Shown: piece by piece, positions 19,119 through 62,838 of the stretch
How positions within the stretch are numbered: position 1 is the stretch's first letter
How the letters are laid out: every line of letters starts with the position of its first letter
The notes under the pieces: model-generated
Seen by the model: only the letters and a program-made list of their open reading frames with translations
Databases searched by the model: none
Told to the model about the DNA's origin: nothing
Assembly (NCBI GenBank): GCA_032986305.1
Contig: GCA_032986305.1_3672.1
Source: a phage
Strand: one strand, 5' to 3'
Length of the DNA stretch: 64,000 nt
Program-made: the position numbers and the translations under genes

Positions 19119-19397
19119 ATGAGCTGTGAAAAATCTTTTTTCTTTATTATTTACGGTAAAGATAACTGCCCACATTGTGTAAGAGCAAAAGAATTTGCAG
19201 TCAGTAAAGGTCTGCCTTTTGTATATAAGACACTTGGCGAGGGTTACACAAAAGAAGAGCTTATTGAGAAGTGCAGTCCAATCGTACCCAGAACGTTGCC
19301 GCAGATCTTCTTAGAAAGCAATCTTGAAAGTGCCCATATAGGCGGTGCCGACGATTTCATCTCTTTTGTTAAGAATGGTTTTGGAGAGAAAAAGTGA
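19119..19397 (+). CDS. glutaredoxin/NrdH-like redoxin
   Basis: 92 aa; CPHC redox motif; between nrdB and nrdD. Confidence 0.7.
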   Translation: MSCEKSFFFIIYGKDNCPHCVRAKEFAVSKGLPFVYKTLGEGYTKEELIEKCSPIVPRTLPQIFLESNLESAHIGGADDFISFVKNGFGEKK

Positions 19398-20254
19398 AAG
19401 TTGTAAAACGGGACGGTAGAGAAGAGGTCTATAACGGAATTAAGGTGATCAAGGCGGCAGAGTCCGCCTTACTTGAGTCTGGACATACTGAAGAAGAAGC
19501 TTACCGGATCGCCTGCGCGGTTAATGAAGTTGTTGCTAACAATCTACCAACCGACCAGTGCACGATCTCTGTAAAAAATATCCATATCCTTGTTGAAGAC
19601 GCTCTTATGGATATGGGTTTAAAATGTGCAGCCAGAGAATACATCCAGTATAGGCAGACAAGAGATAATAACAGAGAGGCAGGTGGAAAACTGCTTGCAG
19701 ATATTAGTGGCTTCTTGGATCGCACTTGTGATGAATTTACAAAAGAAAACGCAAATAAGCCTACCAATCATGTACACACTCATCGTGACCTGCTTGCAGG
19801 CATCCTTAGCAAACACCTTGCATCAACACAGATCCTGCCAGACCGTGTCTCAGAAGAGCACAATAAAGGCTTCATCCATGTGCATGATCTTGACTACTTG
19901 ATCAGTCCGTTAACAAACTGTTGTTTGGTAAATTATCCAGATATGTTGGAAAACGGATTCAACATTGGTAACGCCCATGTCAGTAAGCCGAAGTCAATAG
20001 GGGTTGCAACAACAATCCTTAGCCAAATTTCTAGTGCAGTAGCTAGTGCTCAGTATGGGGGTCAGACTATGAGCCATATTGATCATTATCTGGCACAGTA
20101 TGCTGAGGCGACCTATGAGAAGAATCTTAAATTTTGCCAGGAACACTGGTTGCCAGATGCTGAGACTGTTGCAATGCAAATGACAGATAAAGACGTATTT
20201 GACAGCATGCAGACTTTGCTCTATCAAATCAATACGTTAACCTCTGTCAACGGT
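19394..20254 (+). CDS. nrdD: anaerobic ribonucleotide reductase NrdD, exon 1
   Basis: GFIHVHDLDY...TNCCLV...GNAHVSKPKSIGVATT matches recalled T4 NrdD; ends ...NTLTSVNG then in-frame stop. Confidence 0.8.
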
Positions 20255-20511
20255 TAACAAACTGGCCGTTTTAAAACTCTGCTAACCTCAGTATGAGGGG
20301 TCAGCTGATCGCTGGCTAACGGGGAACGCTAAGGCGAAAGCTATGCCAATCCCGTGACTAGCTTCACAAGGAGTGAGGCGGTTGTAACGACTAACCTTTT
20401 GGTGTAGGGATTATGGAAGATTCCGAAACGCAGAGGTCTGATTAAGAATCACACGGTGTGATTTCAGGCAAGAGATAGTCTGGCCTTGTGGAAACATAAG
20501 GGTGGGGACCG
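20255..20511 (+). mobile_element. group I-type intron 1 in nrdD (ORF-less, 257 nt)
   Basis: Interrupts NrdD between SVNG and QTPF; upstream exon ends in U, intron ends in G. Confidence 0.6.
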
Positions 20512-20811
20512 CAAACCCCTTTTATCACATTAAGTTTAGGTCTGGACACCTCAGTATTTGGTAGAATGATTACCAAAAACTACTTGAAAGTCCACAAAAT
20601 GGGTCTTGGTGAAGAATGTATCACACCTGTGTTCCCTAAAGTGCTGTTCTTCCTAGAAGAGGGTGTCAACATGAACCCTGGAGATCCTAACTATGATTTG
20701 AAACGTTTAGCTCTGGAATGCTCTGCAGAGCGGATTTATCCTGACTTTGTTTCTGTTCCACTAAATCGTAAAGTGACAGGCTCGACAGATGGCAAAGTAA
20801 CGAGCATGGGT
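20512..20811 (+). CDS. nrdD: NrdD exon 2
   Basis: QTPFITLSLG...ITPVFPKVLFFLEEGVN...DPNYDLKRLALEC continues the T4 NrdD alignment. Confidence 0.7.
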
Positions 20812-21573
20812 AAACTATAACTGCTCATGTAAAATCTATCTAAACGGGGAAACTCCAGAACGGACAATCCCGTGCTAAACGTAACAGAACTCCTGACCAA
20901 GAGGAGTCCTGAAATGAGAAAACAAATTCGTGATTTTGAAGGTTATGAAATTGACGAGATGGGCAATGTTTATTGCACCCGCTACGAAAATGAAAGAATT
21001 ATTCATTCGTGGGAAGAGATAAACACAGGTTACCGTCTTGTTAGGATACGCAAGAACAAAAAGACTGTTTGCCTAAGGGTTCACAGACTTGTTGCTGAAG
21101 CGTTCTTACCAAATCCAGACAATTTACCCTATGTTAAGCACAAAGGGGACAACAGGAAAGATAACAGTGTATACAACCTTGAGTGGGGAGCTTGCCCAGA
21201 CAATACGCAAGAAGGATACAACAACAACTGTTATGCTTTTTACACAAGATGCCACGGTGTGAAAGCCACCAACAAATTAACTGGTGAGGTTTTCCACTTT
21301 AAAAGTCTGAGATGTTGTGCTGATGTTTTAGGAGTGGATAGAAAAAGAATATCTGCTATCCTGAAACGTGGTGCGCCTAATAACTATGATTACGAGTTCT
21401 GTTACGAAATGCCTAACGACTAACCGTGATGAATGTAGCGGTGTAGGGTGTAAGCCGATGACACTCGAAATGGTAGACACACTAAGTGTGAAGATATAGT
21501 CTGATCTGCATGGGAACATGCAGCAGCACGTAAAGGTGCGGGGGTGGACTTGCGAACCACCCTGAACATAATG
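20812..21573 (+). mobile_element. group I-type intron 2 in nrdD carrying HNH endonuclease ORF (762 nt)
   Basis: Exon 2 ends ...TSMG (last nt U); exon 3 resumes CRSFLS; intron ends in G. Confidence 0.6.
20914..21423 (+). CDS. HNH homing endonuclease (intron-encoded)
   Basis: RBS AGGAG 7 nt before ATG; VHRLVAEAFLPNP...HKGDNRKDNSVYNLEW typical of phage HNH endonucleases. Confidence 0.7.
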   Translation: MRKQIRDFEGYEIDEMGNVYCTRYENERIIHSWEEINTGYRLVRIRKNKKTVCLRVHRLVAEAFLPNPDNLPYVKHKGDNRKDNSVYNLEWGACPDNTQEGYNNNCYAFYTRCHGVKATNKLTGEVFHFKSLRCCADVLGVDRKRISAILKRGAPNNYDYEFCYEMPND

Positions 21574-22536
21574 TGTAGAAGTTTCTTATCGAAATATAGC
21601 GACCCTGTAACAGGCGAGGAGAAATACCTTGGCAGATTTAACTTAGGCGTTGTTAGCCTTAACCTGCCAATGATTGCGGCAAAAGCCAAGACGGAAGGTG
21701 TTGATTTCTTTGCAGTTCTTGACGAATACTTGGATCTTGCATACGAGGCTCACCTTGTAAGGGTTAATCGTCTAAAAGGAACAAAGGCAGGGCAGAACCC
21801 CATCATGTGGTGTGAAGGCGCTCTTGCTCGCCTGGATCCTGAAGAGAGTGTTGATAAACTCTTCTATGACGGGTACGCTTCCATCAGTATTGGGTATATT
21901 GGTGTGTATGAAACCTGTCAGATTTTGGGTAGAGAGGGTGACAAGGCTTTAGCTCTTGGAATCCTTCAGCACATGAGAGATGCTTGTGAGCGATACAAGA
22001 AGGAAAGTAGACTAGCGTTTAGCTTGTACGGCACTCCTTCTGAGAGTCTATGCTATAAAGCTGCAACCTGTCTGGATCGTGAATATCCGGAAGTGTTGAA
22101 GCACGAGCATGAATATCTCACCAACAGTTTCCATCAGCCAGTATGGATAAATAGCTCTCCTTTTGATAAGTGGGAGTATGAGGAAGGTTTTGCTATGATC
22201 TCCTCTGGTGGCAACATCGGATACGTAGAAACACCTAACCTGAAAAACAACCTGGATGCTTTAGAGGCTCTTGTTGACTTCGGGTATAAACATATTATGT
22301 ACTTCGGTATAAACCAGCCTGTTGACCAATGCTTCAAGTGCGGTTTCCAGGGAGAATTTAAAGCCTCTCCAAGAGGTTTTATATGCCCTTGTTGTGGAAA
22401 CCATGAGGAGGGAACGATCAGTGTAATTAGACGTGTGTCTGGATACCTTTCCAGTCCTAACTCCCGTCCTTACAATAAAGGTAAGCAAGCGGAAGTTATA
22501 GAACGGGTTAAGCACTATGGAAGTTGTAGTTGCTGA
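21574..22536 (+). CDS. nrdD: NrdD exon 3 (glycyl-radical domain)
   Basis: C-terminal Zn site CPCCG and glycyl radical motif RRVSGYL. Confidence 0.8.
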   Translation, partial: CRSFLSKYSDPVTGEEKYLGRFNLGVVSLNLPMIAAKAKTEGVDFFAVLDEYLDLAYEAHLVRVNRLKGTKAGQNPIMWCEGALARLDPEESVDKLFYDGYASISIGYIGVYETCQILGREGDKALALGILQHMRDACERYKKESRLAFSLYGTPSESLCYKAATCLDREYPEVLKHEHEYLTNSFHQPVWINSSPFDKWEYEEGFAMISSGGNIGYVETPNLKNNLDALEALVDFGYKHIMYFGINQPVDQCFKCGFQGEFKASPRGFICPCCGNHEEGTISVIRRVSGYLSSPNSRPYNKGKQAEVIERVKHYGSCSC

Positions 22537-22602
22537 TACTTGACAGAAGCCACAAGGATGTGGCATACTTGGCTAATCTATGAGAACCAAGAGGGATCAA
22601 AG

Positions 22603-23559
22603 ATGCCTAGAGGAAAACAACTTACAACTGAAGAATTTACAAAAAGAGCTAGAGAAGTACATGGCGATAAATATGACTATTCAAAAACCGTATATAAAAC
22701 TGCTAAAAGTAAGGTTGTAATTGTATGCCCTGTTCATGGTGAGTTTACGCAGATCGCTGGACATCATATCCTTGACGGTAGTGGGTGTCCTAAGTGTGGT
22801 AGAGTGCCAGTAGGCAATAAGCTTAGAAACGATTCTAGTGATATTATCAAAAAATTTGTAAAAATCCACGGTGACACCTATGATTATTCTAAGGTTGAAT
22901 ATGTTAACTATAAAACTCCTGTAAAAATTGTATGCCCTGAGCACGGAGTGTTCTTGCAATCCCCATCTAACCATTTGAAAGGCCAAGGGTGCCCTGAGTG
23001 TAGTAAACTCATTAGCGCAGCAAAAAGGAATAAAGGCCCTGAATTCATAGAAAGAGCCAAAGAAATCCATGGCGATAAATATGACTACTCTTTTGTAGAT
23101 TATATGACTTGCGAAGATAAGGTAGAGATAATCTGCAACACTTGTGGAAATCACTTCACCCAGACACCTTCTTGCCACCTGTCTGGTCGTGGATGCCCTA
23201 AATGTGCCAAAAACGGTTTCTTATCTCACAACTATGGGAAGCTTTACCTCATGGTTGATAACTTAGAAGCGCCAACACTTATGAAGATTGGTGTGAGCGT
23301 CAATGTAGAAGCGAGGAAGGGAAGGATATTAAGAGCATCCAAGAAGGCTGGTGCAGGTATTTATGATCTCCACATAGTAAAAACATGGGGCGGATCGACT
23401 GAAAACATGCTGAGTGTAGAAAAATCTGTGCATGAAGCCTTCAATAAGTATAAAATAAACTTCTCTAAAGTATTTAGTGGAAGCACTGAATTCTTTCACT
23501 ACAGACCTGAAGTGTTTAGCATAGTGGAAGCAGTATACAAAGAGATCTGTGGTAAATGA
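22603..23559 (+). CDS. T5orf172/GIY-YIG-like protein with three tandem Zn-binding modules (free-standing homing endonuclease candidate)
   Basis: Three repeats of HGDxYDYS...C..HG.F.Q....HL.G.GCP.C, then KLYLMVDN...KIGVS...R core. Confidence 0.55.
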   Translation: MPRGKQLTTEEFTKRAREVHGDKYDYSKTVYKTAKSKVVIVCPVHGEFTQIAGHHILDGSGCPKCGRVPVGNKLRNDSSDIIKKFVKIHGDTYDYSKVEYVNYKTPVKIVCPEHGVFLQSPSNHLKGQGCPECSKLISAAKRNKGPEFIERAKEIHGDKYDYSFVDYMTCEDKVEIICNTCGNHFTQTPSCHLSGRGCPKCAKNGFLSHNYGKLYLMVDNLEAPTLMKIGVSVNVEARKGRILRASKKAGAGIYDLHIVKTWGGSTENMLSVEKSVHEAFNKYKINFSKVFSGSTEFFHYRPEVFSIVEAVYKEICGK

Positions 23560-23611: not shown

Positions 23612-23728
23612 ATGTCATCGGGTATCTATAAAATCTGCAAGTGCGGTTGTCATTGTAATCTTCGTTGGTGCAAGGCACTGGACGATTTTATTTGGCATTG
23701 CCCTAAATGTGATGCGGAGTATCTATGA
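23612..23728 (+). CDS. small Cys-rich protein (zinc-ribbon-like)
   Basis: 38 aa with RBS AAGGAGGT; CKCGCHC...CPKC; ATGA overlap with nrdG. Confidence 0.3.
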   Translation: MSSGIYKICKCGCHCNLRWCKALDDFIWHCPKCDAEYL

Positions 23729-24198
23729 ATATTGCCGGATACACAGAAATATCTTACACCGAAGGGCCAGGTATTAGAACTGCCTTATGGGTATCTGGGT
23801 GCCCACACGCTTGCCCTGGTTGCTTTAATCAGGCATTTTGGTCAAAAGATAAGGGGAGAGAGTTTACTGAAGAAGACTTGCAAAAAATCTTGTCAGATTT
23901 AGATAACCCGTCTGTGTGCGGTATCTCTCTGCTGGGTGGAGAACCCTTAGCATACTATAATGAGCCAGATATTATTAGCCTGATGGAGAAAATTAAGGAA
24001 AAATTTGGTGACAAGAAAACTATTCTTGTATATACTGGGTTCACATTTGACCATATCTCTAGTGATGTTCTTAAACTGGCTGATATCATCATTGACGGTA
24101 AGTATGTAAAAGATTTACCAACCAAGAAACCGTTCCGAGGTAGTGATAACCAAAGAATGTTTAAAAAAGTATCAGGCGGTTGGGTTCAGGTAGACTAG
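23725..24198 (+). CDS. nrdG: anaerobic RNR activating protein (radical SAM)
   Basis: CPHACPGC cluster; directly downstream of nrdD. Confidence 0.75.
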   Translation: MNIAGYTEISYTEGPGIRTALWVSGCPHACPGCFNQAFWSKDKGREFTEEDLQKILSDLDNPSVCGISLLGGEPLAYYNEPDIISLMEKIKEKFGDKKTILVYTGFTFDHISSDVLKLADIIIDGKYVKDLPTKKPFRGSDNQRMFKKVSGGWVQVD

Positions 24199-59784: not shown

Positions 59785-60138
59785 TTAGTGACAATCACCC
59801 CAGTTACGACCACACAAGTATTCACCTGTGATCTGGAACGGGACTCCCATCATTTTAGAAGCTTGCCAGAAGCAATGCACCACCATTTCACCCACAGGGC
59901 TCCAGATAAGTTCAAGCTTTCCGTCATCGTTCAGGATAGGATCGTACACCGTGTTTCCGTCTCTGTCAACCACCTCGTTTCCGTTTTCATCCTTGCGTGC
60001 CTTTTTGTACTTATGACCGTCGAACACATGAAGTTTGGCTTCCTGCTCTGCCTTAAATGCTTCCAGTTCTTCAATTGTGTCGAAGGTGTACACAGTCTTA
60101 TACTTAGGTGTGTCAGGGACCTGAAGTTGGTACTCATC
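59785..60138 (-). CDS. DNA polymerase (family A, T7 gp5-like), exon 2
   Basis: Begins at motif C (H)DEYQLQV; ends ...GRNWGDCH resembling recalled T7 gp5 C-terminus GPNWAICH. Confidence 0.6.
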   Translation of the reverse strand, partial: DEYQLQVPDTPKYKTVYTFDTIEELEAFKAEQEAKLHVFDGHKYKKARKDENGNEVVDRDGNTVYDPILNDDGKLELIWSPVGEMVVHCFWQASKMMGVPFQITGEYLCGRNWGDCH

Positions 60139-60414
60139 CAATAGTTCAGGTAGGTCGTTAAGCTACCCCGCACCATTACGTGCATAGCCATACGTTTTCA
60201 CGTAGGATCGGACCATCTCATATTCCTATGATAAGCAACCACAGGAATCCTCCCATTTCGACCGCACTTGCTGGTCTACTTCCTTTCGGAATGGCCTCTG
60301 AGCGTTCGCTCTTTTGAGCGCTTCGTTGCGGATTACCTTGCCATAAGGTTTAGGCTTCCCGCAGTTAAAGAGGTTATTCGACATAGATTACTCTATGAAG
60401 CCACAATGTTATTT
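60139..60414 (-). mobile_element. group I-type intron in DNA polymerase gene (ORF-less, about 276 nt)
   Basis: Separates ...IIYYH from DEYQLQV at motif C; exon 1 ends in U, intron ends in G. Confidence 0.5.
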
Positions 60415-62838
60415 ATGGTAATAAATAATACGACGAACACCTTCATCGTACCACCCACGCTTCACCATTTGGTGGTGCATGAGTATCCCAACTAAGTCAC
60501 ACAGCGATGCACCACCATTCTGTTGGTATGCATTAAGTAAAGAGTGTTTAGATCGGGTCCAGATGGCATGACCATCAAAAGAGTAGATAAACTTCTTACC
60601 CGTTGCTTCCCAGAATTTCTCCAGATCCTCTTTACGCCCCTTAAGACCAGGGTTGGCATCCCAAAGTGCATCGATTACCCTTTGTCCCAACTCTGGAGAG
60701 ATGTCCAGCATATCTGCAACTTTATCTTTTTGTGCCCCGTACATAACCCCATACGTGATAGGTTTACCGTCGTTACGGGACACCTCTCTGCCTGCTACTT
60801 TTGTATATGCCTCAGCATTGTTTTGGTGTGCGTCTCCGTTACTTACAACATCGTAATACAGGCCGTTGTCGAACTCAAAGGCACCCCAAGCCCCGATAAG
60901 CTGCTCTAAGTTGGACCCGTCGATACCGATCTCAAAGTATCCTGGAGGAACACCCCACAAGCTACGCATCTCTTTACCCATAACCACTTTAGGAGAGGGT
61001 TTAGGCATGTTTGCACAAATACTGTGTTTCTGTCTGGAAGTGTTTGTTAATCCAGAGCTTTTAGCAGGAAGCTTATGGTCAATCTTCAAGCGTGGGTGAT
61101 TAAGAAGACCAGTATCAACCTTATCCTCCTTGATCGGATCAAGGACCGATCTGCGGTTTCGCAATGATAACCACAAGACGATATCTTTAGCCATCTCTCC
61201 GTTCAATTTTTCAAGATTCGGACATAGGTGTCCAAACGTATCTTTCAGTTGCGGAGAAGTAATAAGTGCCCTAGCTTTTCTACGTATTTTCCTGAATACT
61301 TCCTTTTTAATCCTTTCGGAGTTAGGAAAGCTTCGGAACTTGTGCACAGTTGTCTGGAACTTAGCATCAGTTTTGTTCCAGAAGTTGATAATTAGGTCAC
61401 AATACTCTGACTCCAAAAGCTCGTCCATATATGCATATACTCGTGCATCAACATCTGCATCAGGTAAAGCTTTCTTCTTGCTGTCTTTAGTTACATCCTT
61501 AGTTCTCCACATTGTCGGAAGCCAGCCAGCACTGATCAGGTATCGCTTAATGTCGTCCTGGTTGCTGATTTTCATAGGTATCTTGCAGTCCGGCATTCGC
61601 TTCTGCTGTAGATCACTTATTGCCTGATCCATCAACTCTTTAGGTAAAGGGTGTGGTGTGGAAGTGCCCTTAATATAGCCTCTCAAGAAATCAGCCATCT
61701 TATCGGGGTCTTTGCATCCCATCTCTTCACACCATTTTATCCCCATCTTGCTGACATCTCCTGTAGAGGTAAATGCTCTCTTAGGCGGGGCTTTGAACTC
61801 TAAAGCGCTCATGTCTACAGGATATCCAAGCTTATCTTTTAACCATTTCCAACCATTATTAGAGATTGTCCCGTCTTGGTTAAACGGCTTTTCAGGGAAC
61901 TTGGGCCGCTGAGACATTGACAGCTCTTTTAAAGGCAGTTGTGGTTCAACACGATCAGCGATTTCTTTCATCCACGCATCGCAACGGTCACGTAAAGCAA
62001 TAGCTCCATCTATGTCGAAATATACGCCCTGACGGGCCTGCAGCTCCATCAGGAAGTGCTGCAGCATACCTCGGCGCAATGCGTTCTTCCAGGTGATCTT
62101 CTTGAACCCTTTTGGCTTCTCTTTGGCAGGATCGTACATAAAGTTCTGCATGTCAGATTTGCCGTAGAATACACCTTTTGATTCCGCTACCAGCTCTTTC
62201 CAGAGCAACTCCTGGATGATAACGTCCTCGAATACACGATCCACATACTTCCACAACGGAAGATCGCGCCAGTCATCAATTTGAACTTTCTGGTTACCAA
62301 GGGCGTAGCCCCATGCCATAAGGCCGTGAGGACCAACAGGCTGCATTTTCTTAGTAACCGGGTTGAATACAGCGTCCGGACAACCTTTTGGTAAAGGGCG
62401 ATCAGGCCACAAGATTCGGCTCATCGCCAACGTATCAAACAGGTTAACCTGGTGGTCGTTGATAGTCCCCATACATTTAGGATCACGGAACATATCAAAA
62501 TGAATACCGGATAATCTCTCCATCAGCATAAAGTCATAACTATAGCAGTTATGGCAGTTCAAAGCTGTTGGTGACCAGTCGGAATTGCCTGTAAGCCAAC
62601 CTTCCAACTCCGAAAAATCTGCTATGCGAACTTCAAAATCTTTATAAAGAGCTTTCTTTGCCAGAATAAAGTTCTTAGCCTTCTCTATATCCTCCTCGGA
62701 GTAGTGTGTGCGGTCATTTAGAGGGAGGAACAGCATAAAACGGTTCTTATTCAGCTCTTTAAACAGGCCGCAGTGATAATAAAGATCTGGGTCTTCCAAA
62801 AGCCCGGAGGCCTCAAAATCGAAGCTATACATGCTCAT
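60415..62838 (-). CDS. DNA polymerase (family A, T7 gp5-like), exon 1
   Basis: N-terminal exo FDFEASGLLEDPDLYYHCG like T7 VSDIEANALLESVTKFHCG; motif A GIDGSNLEQL; motif B RNDGKPITYGVMYG. Confidence 0.8.

Follow-up and report, generated by a model that had tools for sequence, protein, structure and literature searches.

The nrdE gene of Staphylococcus phage Twort contains two group I introns, one of them encoding the HNH enzyme I-TwoI, and SPbeta and Brochothrix A9 likewise have multi-intron ribonucleotide reductase (RNR) genes (PMC3653736). The nrdD (sunY) intron of T4 carries I-TevII, a GIY-YIG enzyme placed in P9.1. In phi92 and SD2 an intron interrupts nrdD at an MG^C site (a caret marks a junction); the phi92 copy is without an ORF and is annotated as a 'spliced variant'. 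The GenBank records of phi92 and of the BASEL Vequintaviruses AlexBoehm and WalterGehring already give nrdD as a joined CDS, the latter two across a different intron.

We analysed a 64,000-nt stretch of phage DNA (GCA_032986305.1, contig GCA_032986305.1_3672.1; hereafter the window), which belongs to an rV5-like coliphage (Vequintavirus). Its nrdD, encoding a class III anaerobic RNR, very probably carries two group I introns, mobile and independent of each other, whose splicing, as judged from the sequence, would yield a 707-aa NrdD. The host gene is that of the T4 intron. Intron 1 is the one across which the BASEL records join the exons, and intron 2 lies at the site used in phi92 and SD2 (84-89% identity); each of these four phages has one nrdD intron, whereas the window has two. 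As in Twort, several introns occupy one RNR gene at conserved functional residues, one ORF-less and one with an HNH gene (PMC3653736), although Twort, SPbeta and A9 are phages of Gram-positive hosts whose introns lie in class Ib nrdE at unrelated sites. The locus is laid out as follows.

19394-20254, + strand: nrdD exon 1, encoding the ATP-cone and the N-terminal part of NrdD, 3' end ...AACGGU (from the ORF listing and domain matches)
20255-20511, + strand: intron 1, group I, 257 nt, without ORF, 3' G (precisely missing in phiWec191; RF00028 local match; helix set)
20512-20811, + strand: nrdD exon 2, 100 codons, QTPF...TSMG
20812-21573, + strand: intron 2, group I of the T4 sunY/nrdD type, 762 nt, 3' G (precisely missing in AlexBoehm; RF00028; helices)
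20914-21423, + strand: I-HmuI-like HNH homing endonuclease ORF, 169 aa, within the P6 loop of intron 2 (PDB 1U3E, phrog_59)
21574-22536, + strand: nrdD exon 3, first codon Cys388, with the RVSGY glycyl-radical motif and a C-terminal Cys cluster
23725-24198: nrdG-type ORF (ORF listing and annotation)

The five segments from exon 1 to exon 3 measure 861, 257, 300, 762 and 963 nt. Joined in silico, the three exons encode exactly 707 residues, where the first-pass annotation had proposed roughly that number, with a single stop at the end and the junction peptides SVNG^QTPF and TSMG^CRSFLS. The product matches Pfam NRDD over profile positions 1-562 of 562 (534 bits) as well as Gly_radical, with RRVSGYL found in the sequence; the full NRDD domain, RVxGY, the catalytic Cys of the finger loop and the nearby NrdG-type ORF identify it as a class III NrdD. 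The Pfam ATP-cone match, at residues 2-91, favours 19394 as the start, where a GTG overlaps the glutaredoxin stop. Pipelines often start nrdD at a downstream ATG, giving a truncated ATP-cone. The class I genes nrdAB lie directly upstream of nrdD. In all five Vequintavirus genomes compared (5/5), the spliced nrdD CDS is 2124 nt long with a single stop, whatever their intron content. The resemblance to T4 NrdD first noted across both junctions holds at Cys388, the first residue after intron 2, which aligns with the catalytic Cys290 of T4, so that intron 2 is inserted immediately 5' of the catalytic Cys codon. It does not extend to intron position: neither intron is at the T4 nrdD intron site (AYEY^EVNTL), which lies ~29 nt upstream of the intron 1 site and ~110 codons upstream of the intron 2 site.

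The boundaries of the inserts read ...GGT^TAAC...ACCG^CAA... for intron 1 and ...GGT^AAAC...AATG^TGT... for intron 2, so that, as first noted, each upstream exon has U as its last base and each insert has G (the omega G: G20511 and G21573). Uninterrupted alleles of relatives contain the predicted spliced junctions, AACGGG^CAAACC in phiWec191, which is without intron 1, and ATGGGT^TGCCGG in AlexBoehm, which is without intron 2, and bear out the proposed exon and intron coordinates to the base. For intron 1, comparison alone leaves a 1-nt ambiguity (20254-20510 or 20255-20511); since the group I rule wants a U at position -1 and a terminal G, we place it at 20255-20511. Nothing beyond the interruption itself would suggest inteins, translational bypass elements or assembly artefacts, whose probability we regard as vanishingly small: an in-frame TAA opens intron 1 and exon-frame stops occur in both inserts, their lengths are not both multiples of three, and the same inserts recur in dozens of independently sequenced genomes.

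Intron 2 has the following elements.

20804-20830, + strand: P1, exon GCAUGGGU (20804-20811) with guide GCUCAUGU (20823-20830), U20811•G20823
20835-20887, + strand: 5' core, comprising P3 UCUAUC (pairing with GGUAGA, 21472-21477), P4/P5, P6 and the P6a 5' strand CGUAACAG
20890-20906, + strand: hairpin CUCCU/AGGAG, the counterpart of P6b in phi92, with the Shine-Dalgarno sequence for the endonuclease ORF inside it
21399-21562, + strand: 3' core, comprising P6a', P6', P7, P7.1, P7.2, P3', P8, P9, P9.1 and P9.2

All eight pairs of P1 form, the U•G included, and P10 joins CUAUA (20815-20819) to UGUAG of the 3' exon (21574-21578). Helices P1, P3-P6, P6a, P7 (GACUA 21418-21422/UAGUC 21497-21501), P7.1, P7.2, P8, P9, P9.1, P9.2 and P10 follow in canonical order. 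Across the introns of the window, phi92, Vibrio F95 and T4, helix pairing is 97-100%, and the four sequences differ in P3, P4, P6a, P7.1, P7.2, P8, P9.1, P9.2 and P10. These helices were checked singly by script; MAFFT of the four ORF-deleted introns misregistered P5, P6a, P8, P9.1 and P9.2. With its ORF removed, intron 2 is 89% identical to the phi92 copy, 68% to the T4 nrdD intron and 50% to intron 1. Like the T4 intron it has no P2, a P7.1 with the conserved loop UGAUGAAUGUA, a P7.2, the J8/7 sequence GAAGAUA, a P9-P9.1-P9.2 3' domain with the end UGAACAxAUUG, and the identical guide GCUCAUGU. By sequence and predicted fold, intron 2 and the T4 nrdD (sunY) intron are one lineage, although the T4 intron has its GIY-YIG enzyme in P9.1 and intron 2 an HNH enzyme in P6.

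The ORF of intron 2 aligns end to end with I-HmuI, the HNH nicking enzyme of the SPO1 DNA polymerase intron (PDB 1U3E; E 1.8e-7, residues 3-166 against 4-172), and matches phrog_59 ('HNH endonuclease'; PHROG 59) at E 2.8e-32. Its Pfam HNH_3 match scores 19.7 bits, under the curated cutoff of 24.8, and a match to the NUMOD-like Pfam family of I-HmuI is likewise below cutoff. The HNH motif is nevertheless recognisable: HKGDNRKDNSVYNLEW aligns with DHKDGNKDNNLSTNLRW of I-HmuI, the H..N..N catalytic residues are retained (HKGDNRKDN...NLEW), and so is the C-terminal NUMOD-like region for DNA binding, although identity is low and the putative window enzyme has a different target gene. The ORF has its own ribosome-binding site, as first proposed, an AGGAG at 20902-20906, 7 nt ahead of the ATG. 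Its final 8 codons and TAA also encode P6a', P6', J6/7 and P7 of the intron; sequestration of the site in the CUCCU/AGGAG hairpin, or the overlap of the stop codon with P7, may control translation of the ORF.

Intron 1, which is 257 nt long and ORF-less as the first reading had it, has these elements.

20249-20270, + strand: P1, exon AACGGU (20249-20254) with guide GCCGUU (20265-20270), U20254•G20265 at the 5' splice site
20277-20282, + strand: P3 5' strand CUCUGC, pairing with GCAGAG (20430-20435)
20286-20315, + strand: two extra hairpins, CCUCA-GUA-UGAGG and UCAGC-UGAUC-GCUGG, between P3 and P4
20319-20378, + strand: P4-P5-P6 domain, with P4 ACGGGG/UCCCGU, P5a with a GAAA loop, and P6a CUUCAC/GUGAGG
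20389-20480, + strand: P7, GACUA (20389-20393)/UAGUC (20476-20480), enclosing P7.1, P7.2, P3' and P8
20484-20519, + strand: P9 CCUUGUG-GAAA-CAUAAGG (20484-20501) and the 3' end, terminal G 20511

P1 is paired at 6/6 positions including the U•G, and a further hairpin spans the 3' splice site (GGGG 20504-20507 with exon CCCC 20516-20519). The P3/P7 pseudoknot forms, with CAAGAGA as J8/7, and the unconstrained minimum free energy (MFE) fold consists of the same helices. In other Vequintaviruses, homologues of intron 1 have an HNH gene in the P8 loop. One such variant (540-nt ORF) is 87% identical and shows compensatory changes in P3 (CUCUCC/GGAGAG), the second extra hairpin, P9 (CCCUGUG/CACAGGG) and the 3' splice-site hairpin (GGAG/CUCC). 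The second extra hairpin reads UCGG/CCGG in L005 and UCGGC/GCUGG in L008; the covariation of intron 1 comprises three distinct sequences only. The variant was compared by BLAST segments and anchoring motifs, a global MAFFT alignment having misaligned the 3' half around the 540-nt ORF. The window intron 1 is an ORF-less form of an HNH-carrying Vequintavirus intron. A scan of IMG/VR with a degenerate P4-P5 pattern returned L008, one further copy of intron 1 from a Vequintavirus, and L009 and L010, an unrelated intron whose J3/4 is canonical, and no distant relatives of intron 1.

Both introns have a P3-P8 core that includes the P3/P7 pseudoknot, together with a P4-P6 domain, all in helices that are fully or nearly fully paired, and share the P7 pairing GACUA/UAGUC with the T4 nrdD intron; these complete, ordered helix sets with covariation uphold the group I assignment of the first-pass annotation. 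The suggested comparison with Rfam RF00028 gave a divided answer. A scan of the whole window at the gathering score (50 bits) found no group I match in nrdD. In local scans intron 1 scored 29.2 bits (E 4e-5) and intron 2 35.3 bits, the latter in its 3' half only; the phi92 homologue of intron 2, which has no ORF, reached 70.6 bits, and 105.3 bits were obtained for the T4 nrdD intron. We attribute the low score of intron 2 to the 510-nt ORF dividing its core, and that of intron 1 to misplacement of P3 by the model, owing to an insertion in J3/4. The P3 that RF00028 proposes (CGCUG.../...CAGAG beside P4) is mismatched and impossible in the ORF-carrying variant, whereas the upstream CUCUGC/GCAGAG covaries, and we rejected the former. 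Both introns are more stable than shuffled sequences (MFE z = -3.9 for intron 1 and -3.8 for intron 2), with 0/200 shuffles as stable.

J3/4 of group I introns is normally about 3 nt long. In intron 1 it holds an unusual 33-nt insertion comprising the two extra hairpins, flanked by GCUAAC direct repeats at 20281 and 20315, and P10 has only 2 bp, which makes the catalytic competence of intron 1 less certain than that of intron 2. Together with the sub-threshold Rfam scores, this insertion and weak P10 could indicate that one or both introns, most plausibly intron 1, have decayed and splice inefficiently, leaving nrdD non-functional or poorly expressed; with nrdAB directly upstream, a poor nrdD could be tolerated since class I NrdAB is also encoded. 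We nevertheless consider decay very unlikely. The exons are intact in all intron configurations compared, the ORF-less intron 1 is conserved at >=99% in 14 phages from various countries, and its helices stay paired via compensatory changes, while intron 2 matches the T4 nrdD intron, which self-splices, almost exactly in P7, J8/7, the P7.1 loop and P9.

Beyond two functional introns, the reading we favour, we consider two further ideas possible rather than probable: that the sunY-type lineage took a second nrdD site with its guide unchanged, and that the intron 1 core tolerates a J3/4 module. At the T4 site the partner of the guide GCUCAUGU is UUAUGAGU; at the MG^C site it is GCAUGGGU. An unchanged guide at two sites would fit RNA-guided ectopic transposition (reverse splicing, or selection of guide-matching sites) rather than endonuclease homing; the lineage would later have swapped the P9.1 GIY-YIG gene for the P6 HNH gene. 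If intron 1 splices, the group I core accepts more at J3/4 than is usually assumed.

Automatic annotation lists three separate nrdD CDSs, and this might be read literally, as unspliced inserts and an NrdD of three polypeptides assembling into an active enzyme. Precedents exist in NrdA of Aeromonas phage Aeh1, split by the mobE endonuclease gene, and in an HNH insert of the related Vequintavirinae phage CB7 that does not splice, although HNH-containing introns of CB7 do splice, as seen by RT-PCR (PMC7344957). Start codons are at hand as well, in an in-frame ATG formed by the last 3 bases of intron 2 (21571-21573) and an internal ATG opening an ORF at 20566 in exon 2. The ORF from 20566, though, would lack 18 conserved residues, QTPF among them, and no ribosome-binding site is evident for it. 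The breaks would fall inside conserved motifs (NG^QTPF, MG^CRSF) beside the catalytic Cys, an ORF-less 257-nt insert has no purpose in such an arrangement, and both inserts have full group I cores with covariation. Taken together, these points make a three-part NrdD highly improbable. RNA or cDNA reports on this phage or on any Vequintavirus nrdD intron were not found in the searchable literature. Under the two-intron reading, each transcribed intron would fold as a ribozyme along the established group I pathway. An external guanosine in P7 would attack the phosphodiester 3' of the uridine in the P1 U•G pair (U20254, U20811), the freed exon 3'-OH would then attack after the terminal G (G20511, G21573), and ligation of the three exons would produce the mRNA for NrdD. 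The practical value is in annotation: pipelines split nrdD into three fragments, and the correct product would be one spliced 707-aa protein.

A two-intron nrdD is an ordinary phage feature, already annotated in near-identical phages, and leaves the understanding of group I introns unchanged; it adds a further case of phage genes for nucleotide metabolism with homing introns at their most conserved codons, in nrdD including the position just ahead of the thiyl-radical Cys codon. Of 59 evenly sampled relatives, 31 (rV5 among them) have no intron, 17 have intron 1 only, 8 intron 2 only and 3 both, the last state, seen for example in 241Ecol014PP and A147, thus amounting to about 5%. Intron 1 was found in 43 phage records. 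With all intron combinations (none, either, both, with or without ORF) present among them, Vequintaviruses lend themselves to the study of how introns are gained and lost in nature and how their ORFs turn over. By analogy with I-HmuI, the predicted endonuclease probably nicks or cuts intron-less nrdD in co-infection, with repair copying the intron and flanking exon. Indirect support comes from the patchy distribution of the introns and from a 3' exon flank whose divergence follows intron presence: the 60 nt 3' of intron 2 are identical at 59-60/60 positions in intron-plus relatives, where the exon flank reads TGTAGAAGT, as against 44-45/60 in intron-minus relatives.

The nrdD region contains three collinear reading frames on the plus strand, separated by stretches of 257 and 762 nt. 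Joined together, segments 19394-20254, 20512-20811 and 21574-22536 form a 2124-nt frame with one terminal stop, encoding 707 amino acids, as anticipated in the first-pass annotation, which had proposed three in-frame segments giving an NrdD (class III anaerobic ribonucleotide reductase) of about 707 residues. In Pfam the joined protein matches NRDD across the whole profile (534 bits) and also Gly_radical; a further match to ATP-cone spans residues 2-91 and, by beginning at residue 2, supports the GTG start at 19394, which overlaps the glutaredoxin stop. The genes nrdA, nrdB and grx lie on the upstream side and nrdG downstream. Several deposited annotations place the nrdD start at a later ATG (locus position 1714, window 19607), with the consequence that most of the ATP-cone is lost from the annotated protein.

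The window shares 93-98% identity with Vequintavirus (rV5-like) coliphages, and because insert content varies among these relatives, they provide natural deletion controls. Aligned with the window, phiWec191, which lacks the first insert, reads ...GTCAACGGG|CAAACCCC... at the junction, and AlexBoehm, a BASEL collection phage without the second insert, reads ...AGCATGGGT|TGCCGGAG..., both exactly matching the predicted junctions. For intron 1, comparison alone permits a 1-nt shift of the boundary, and the group I rule (U at -1, terminal G) fixes it at 20255-20511. Each of the two upstream segments ends in GGT and each insert in G, the pattern previously described for both junctions. Inteins and bypass elements were ruled out by in-frame stops and insert lengths. 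The spliced coding sequence is intact at 2124 nt in 5/5 Vequintavirus genomes examined, irrespective of intron content.

Searching the whole window with the Rfam group I intron model (RF00028) at its gathering score of 50 bits gave no match in nrdD, the sole group I match being a third intron. This intron and two endonuclease-type genes are as follows:

Additional elements of the window (coordinates, strand, description)
20914-21423, plus strand, endonuclease ORF of intron 2, 169 aa, with AGGAG 7 nt before the ATG
22540-23559, plus strand, free-standing endonuclease-like gene, 339 aa, between nrdD and nrdG (phrog_681, E 8e-68)
60189-60424, minus strand, third group I intron, ORF-less (RF00028 64.7 bits, above the gathering score)

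Local RF00028 scans returned sub-threshold full-model matches for intron 1 (20245-20501, 29.2 bits, E 4e-5) and for the P7-P9 part of intron 2 (21418-21523, 35.3 bits, E 6e-7). For calibration, RF00028 gives 105.3 bits for the T4 nrdD intron and 70.6 bits for a 279-nt ORF-less intron of phi92, which occupies the TSMG|CRSF site of intron 2 and shares 89% identity with ORF-removed intron 2. Intron 2 therefore falls below threshold only because its 510-nt ORF divides the core, while the low score of intron 1 arises partly because Rfam imposes a different, mismatched P3. In the comparison with RF00028 suggested earlier, neither nrdD intron reaches the gathering score; complete P1-P9 helix sets were found by script.

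For intron 2 (20812-21573), ORF-deleted constructs were made from the window, phi92/SD2, Vibrio phage F95 and T4, and each helix was script-checked. Exon GCAUGGGU pairs with guide GCUCAUGU as P1, with U•G at the splice site, and the helices run in canonical order (P1, P3, P4, P5, P6, P6a, P7, P7.1, P7.2, P8, P9, P9.1, P9.2, P10), including the P3/P7 pseudoknot. Helix pairing is 97-100% in all four introns and is kept despite sequence change in P3 (window UCUAUC/GGUAGA; F95 CAUCCU/GGGAUG; T4 UCUGCC/GGCAGA), P4, P6a, P7.1, P7.2, P8, P9.1, P9.2 and P10. The last of these (CUAUA/UGUAG in the window, GGCA/UGCC in F95) follows synonymous differences in the Cys-Arg codons. The ORF-deleted form folds with an MFE z of -3.8. 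The 762-nt insert is group I-type, as first proposed. Like the T4 sunY/nrdD intron it lacks P2 and has P7.1, P7.2 and an extended P9.1/P9.2 3' domain; identity to the T4 nrdD intron is 68%, compared with ~50% to intron 1 or an unrelated phage intron, and the guide sequences are identical. The insertion site differs from that in T4, which is AYEY|EVNTL; intron 2 is placed immediately before Cys388. This residue aligns with T4 Cys290 (SPMGCRSF), the thiyl-radical cysteine in T4 NrdD structural work. The MG|C site is common to intron 2, phi92, SD2 and F95, and a guide shared by T4-site and MG|C-site introns is a point of modest interest. The F95 nrdD (L012 200-2700) likewise has two HNH-containing interruptions, one at MG|C with a sunY-type core and the other at QYG|GQT, bringing the distinct nrdD insertion sites to four.

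The proposal that intron 2 encodes an HNH endonuclease with its own ribosome-binding site is upheld. The 169-aa ORF aligns end-to-end with I-HmuI (PDB 1U3E, E 1.8e-7), retaining the H..N..N residues, and matches PHROG 59 'HNH endonuclease' (2.8e-32); in Pfam, HNH_3 and I-HmuI NUMOD-like fell below cutoffs. It occupies the P6 loop. Its Shine-Dalgarno sequence is the 3' strand of a CUCCU/AGGAG hairpin, the counterpart of phi92 P6b, and its final codons and TAA stop encode P6a', P6', J6/7 and P7. ORF translation may compete with ribozyme folding, as for T4 intron endonucleases.

Fourteen phage records contain intron 1 at 99% identity or more, and 29 further records match its first 141 nt at ~87% identity. 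In the two examined of these 29 (phita32 and WalterGehring), the intron is 797 nt long and its P8 loop holds a 177-aa HNH ORF (L005 2586-3119 in WalterGehring). In both phages the ATG and last codons of this gene overlap the two P8 strands (CUCUA/UAGAG). The P7.1/P7.2 region is unrelated in sequence between ORF-carrying and ORF-less forms. Script checking gave P1 (AACGGU/GCCGUU with U•G), P3, P4, P5a, P6a, P7, P7.1, P7.2, P8, P8a and P9, with compensatory changes between variants in P3 (CUCUGC/GCAGAG vs CUCUCC/GGAGAG), P9 (CCUUGUG/CAUAAGG vs CCCUGUG/CACAGGG) and an extra hairpin B (UCAGC/GCUGG vs UCGG/CCGG). A 3' splice-site hairpin (window 20504-20519; L005 3148-3166) pairs intron GGGG with exon CCCC, or GGAG with CUCC, at synonymous sites of exon 2; as both sides are changed in the ORF-carrying variant, exon wobble positions covary with intron 1. 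The unconstrained MFE fold contains the same helices (z = -3.9, 0/200 shuffles as stable). Together, these data corroborate the description of intron 1 as a 257-nt, ORF-less group I-type intron. Unusually, two small hairpins follow the covarying P3 5' strand, placing 33 nt where T4 and intron 2 have the J3/4 'UAA'. This module (window 20281-20320) sits between GCUAAC direct repeats at 20281 and 20315 and looks like an insertion with target-site duplication; the J3/4 insertion is of modest interest.

Splicing could have decayed, in intron 1 especially, but this reading is improbable, as exon conservation and maintained intron helix pairing speak against it. Production of NrdD as three polypeptides without splicing would have a precedent in Aeh1 NrdA/mobE, as cited in PMC7344957, but is unlikely, since the ribozyme core is complete in both inserts, one insert carries no ORF and the fragments are without proper starts. 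Spliced group I introns remain our reading, and both the original observation and its interpretation are right. The feature is ordinary, and near-identical genomes already carry the annotation: in BASEL Vequintavirus records the nrdD exons are joined across intron 1, and the phi92 record annotates a 'spliced variant'. Phage split nrdD and multi-intron ribonucleotide reductase genes are well documented (PMC3653736; PMC2988022), BASEL intron boundaries were annotated via comparative genomics (PMC8594841), and RT-PCR shows splicing of HNH introns in CB7, a related phage (PMC7344957). Our literature search found no paper describing or testing Vequintavirus nrdD introns specifically.

Of the 119 Vequintavirus-type records, 59 were sampled evenly: nrdD is uninterrupted in 31, rV5 among them, and contains intron 1 only in 17, intron 2 only in 8 and both in 3. 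The rV5 paper reports introns in terL only, consistent with its uninterrupted nrdD. The 60-nt exon flank 3' of intron 2 matches the window at 59-60/60 in intron-plus and 44-45/60 in intron-minus relatives (background identity ~92-98%), a sequence pattern that would be expected from co-conversion or target-site divergence.

The gene interrupted by the third intron encodes a family-A DNA polymerase; an 809-aa ORF (60409-62838, minus strand) ends inside the intron and the frame resumes in ORF 59785-60141 (minus strand). Relatives have 'DNA polymerase' annotated once or twice in this region. For the 339-aa gene, Pfam gives T5orf172/MUG113, DUF723 and zinc-finger repeats. 241Ecol014PP and AlexBoehm do not have this gene, WalterGehring does (as 'putative homing endonuclease'), and it parallels T4 mobC, sited between nrdD and nrdG. 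Some 20 GenBank records (MG0656xx) bear the name 'Campylobacter phage' and give C. jejuni as host; over nrdD and the polymerase region they share 96-100% identity with E. coli Vequintaviruses, and their host label looks doubtful.
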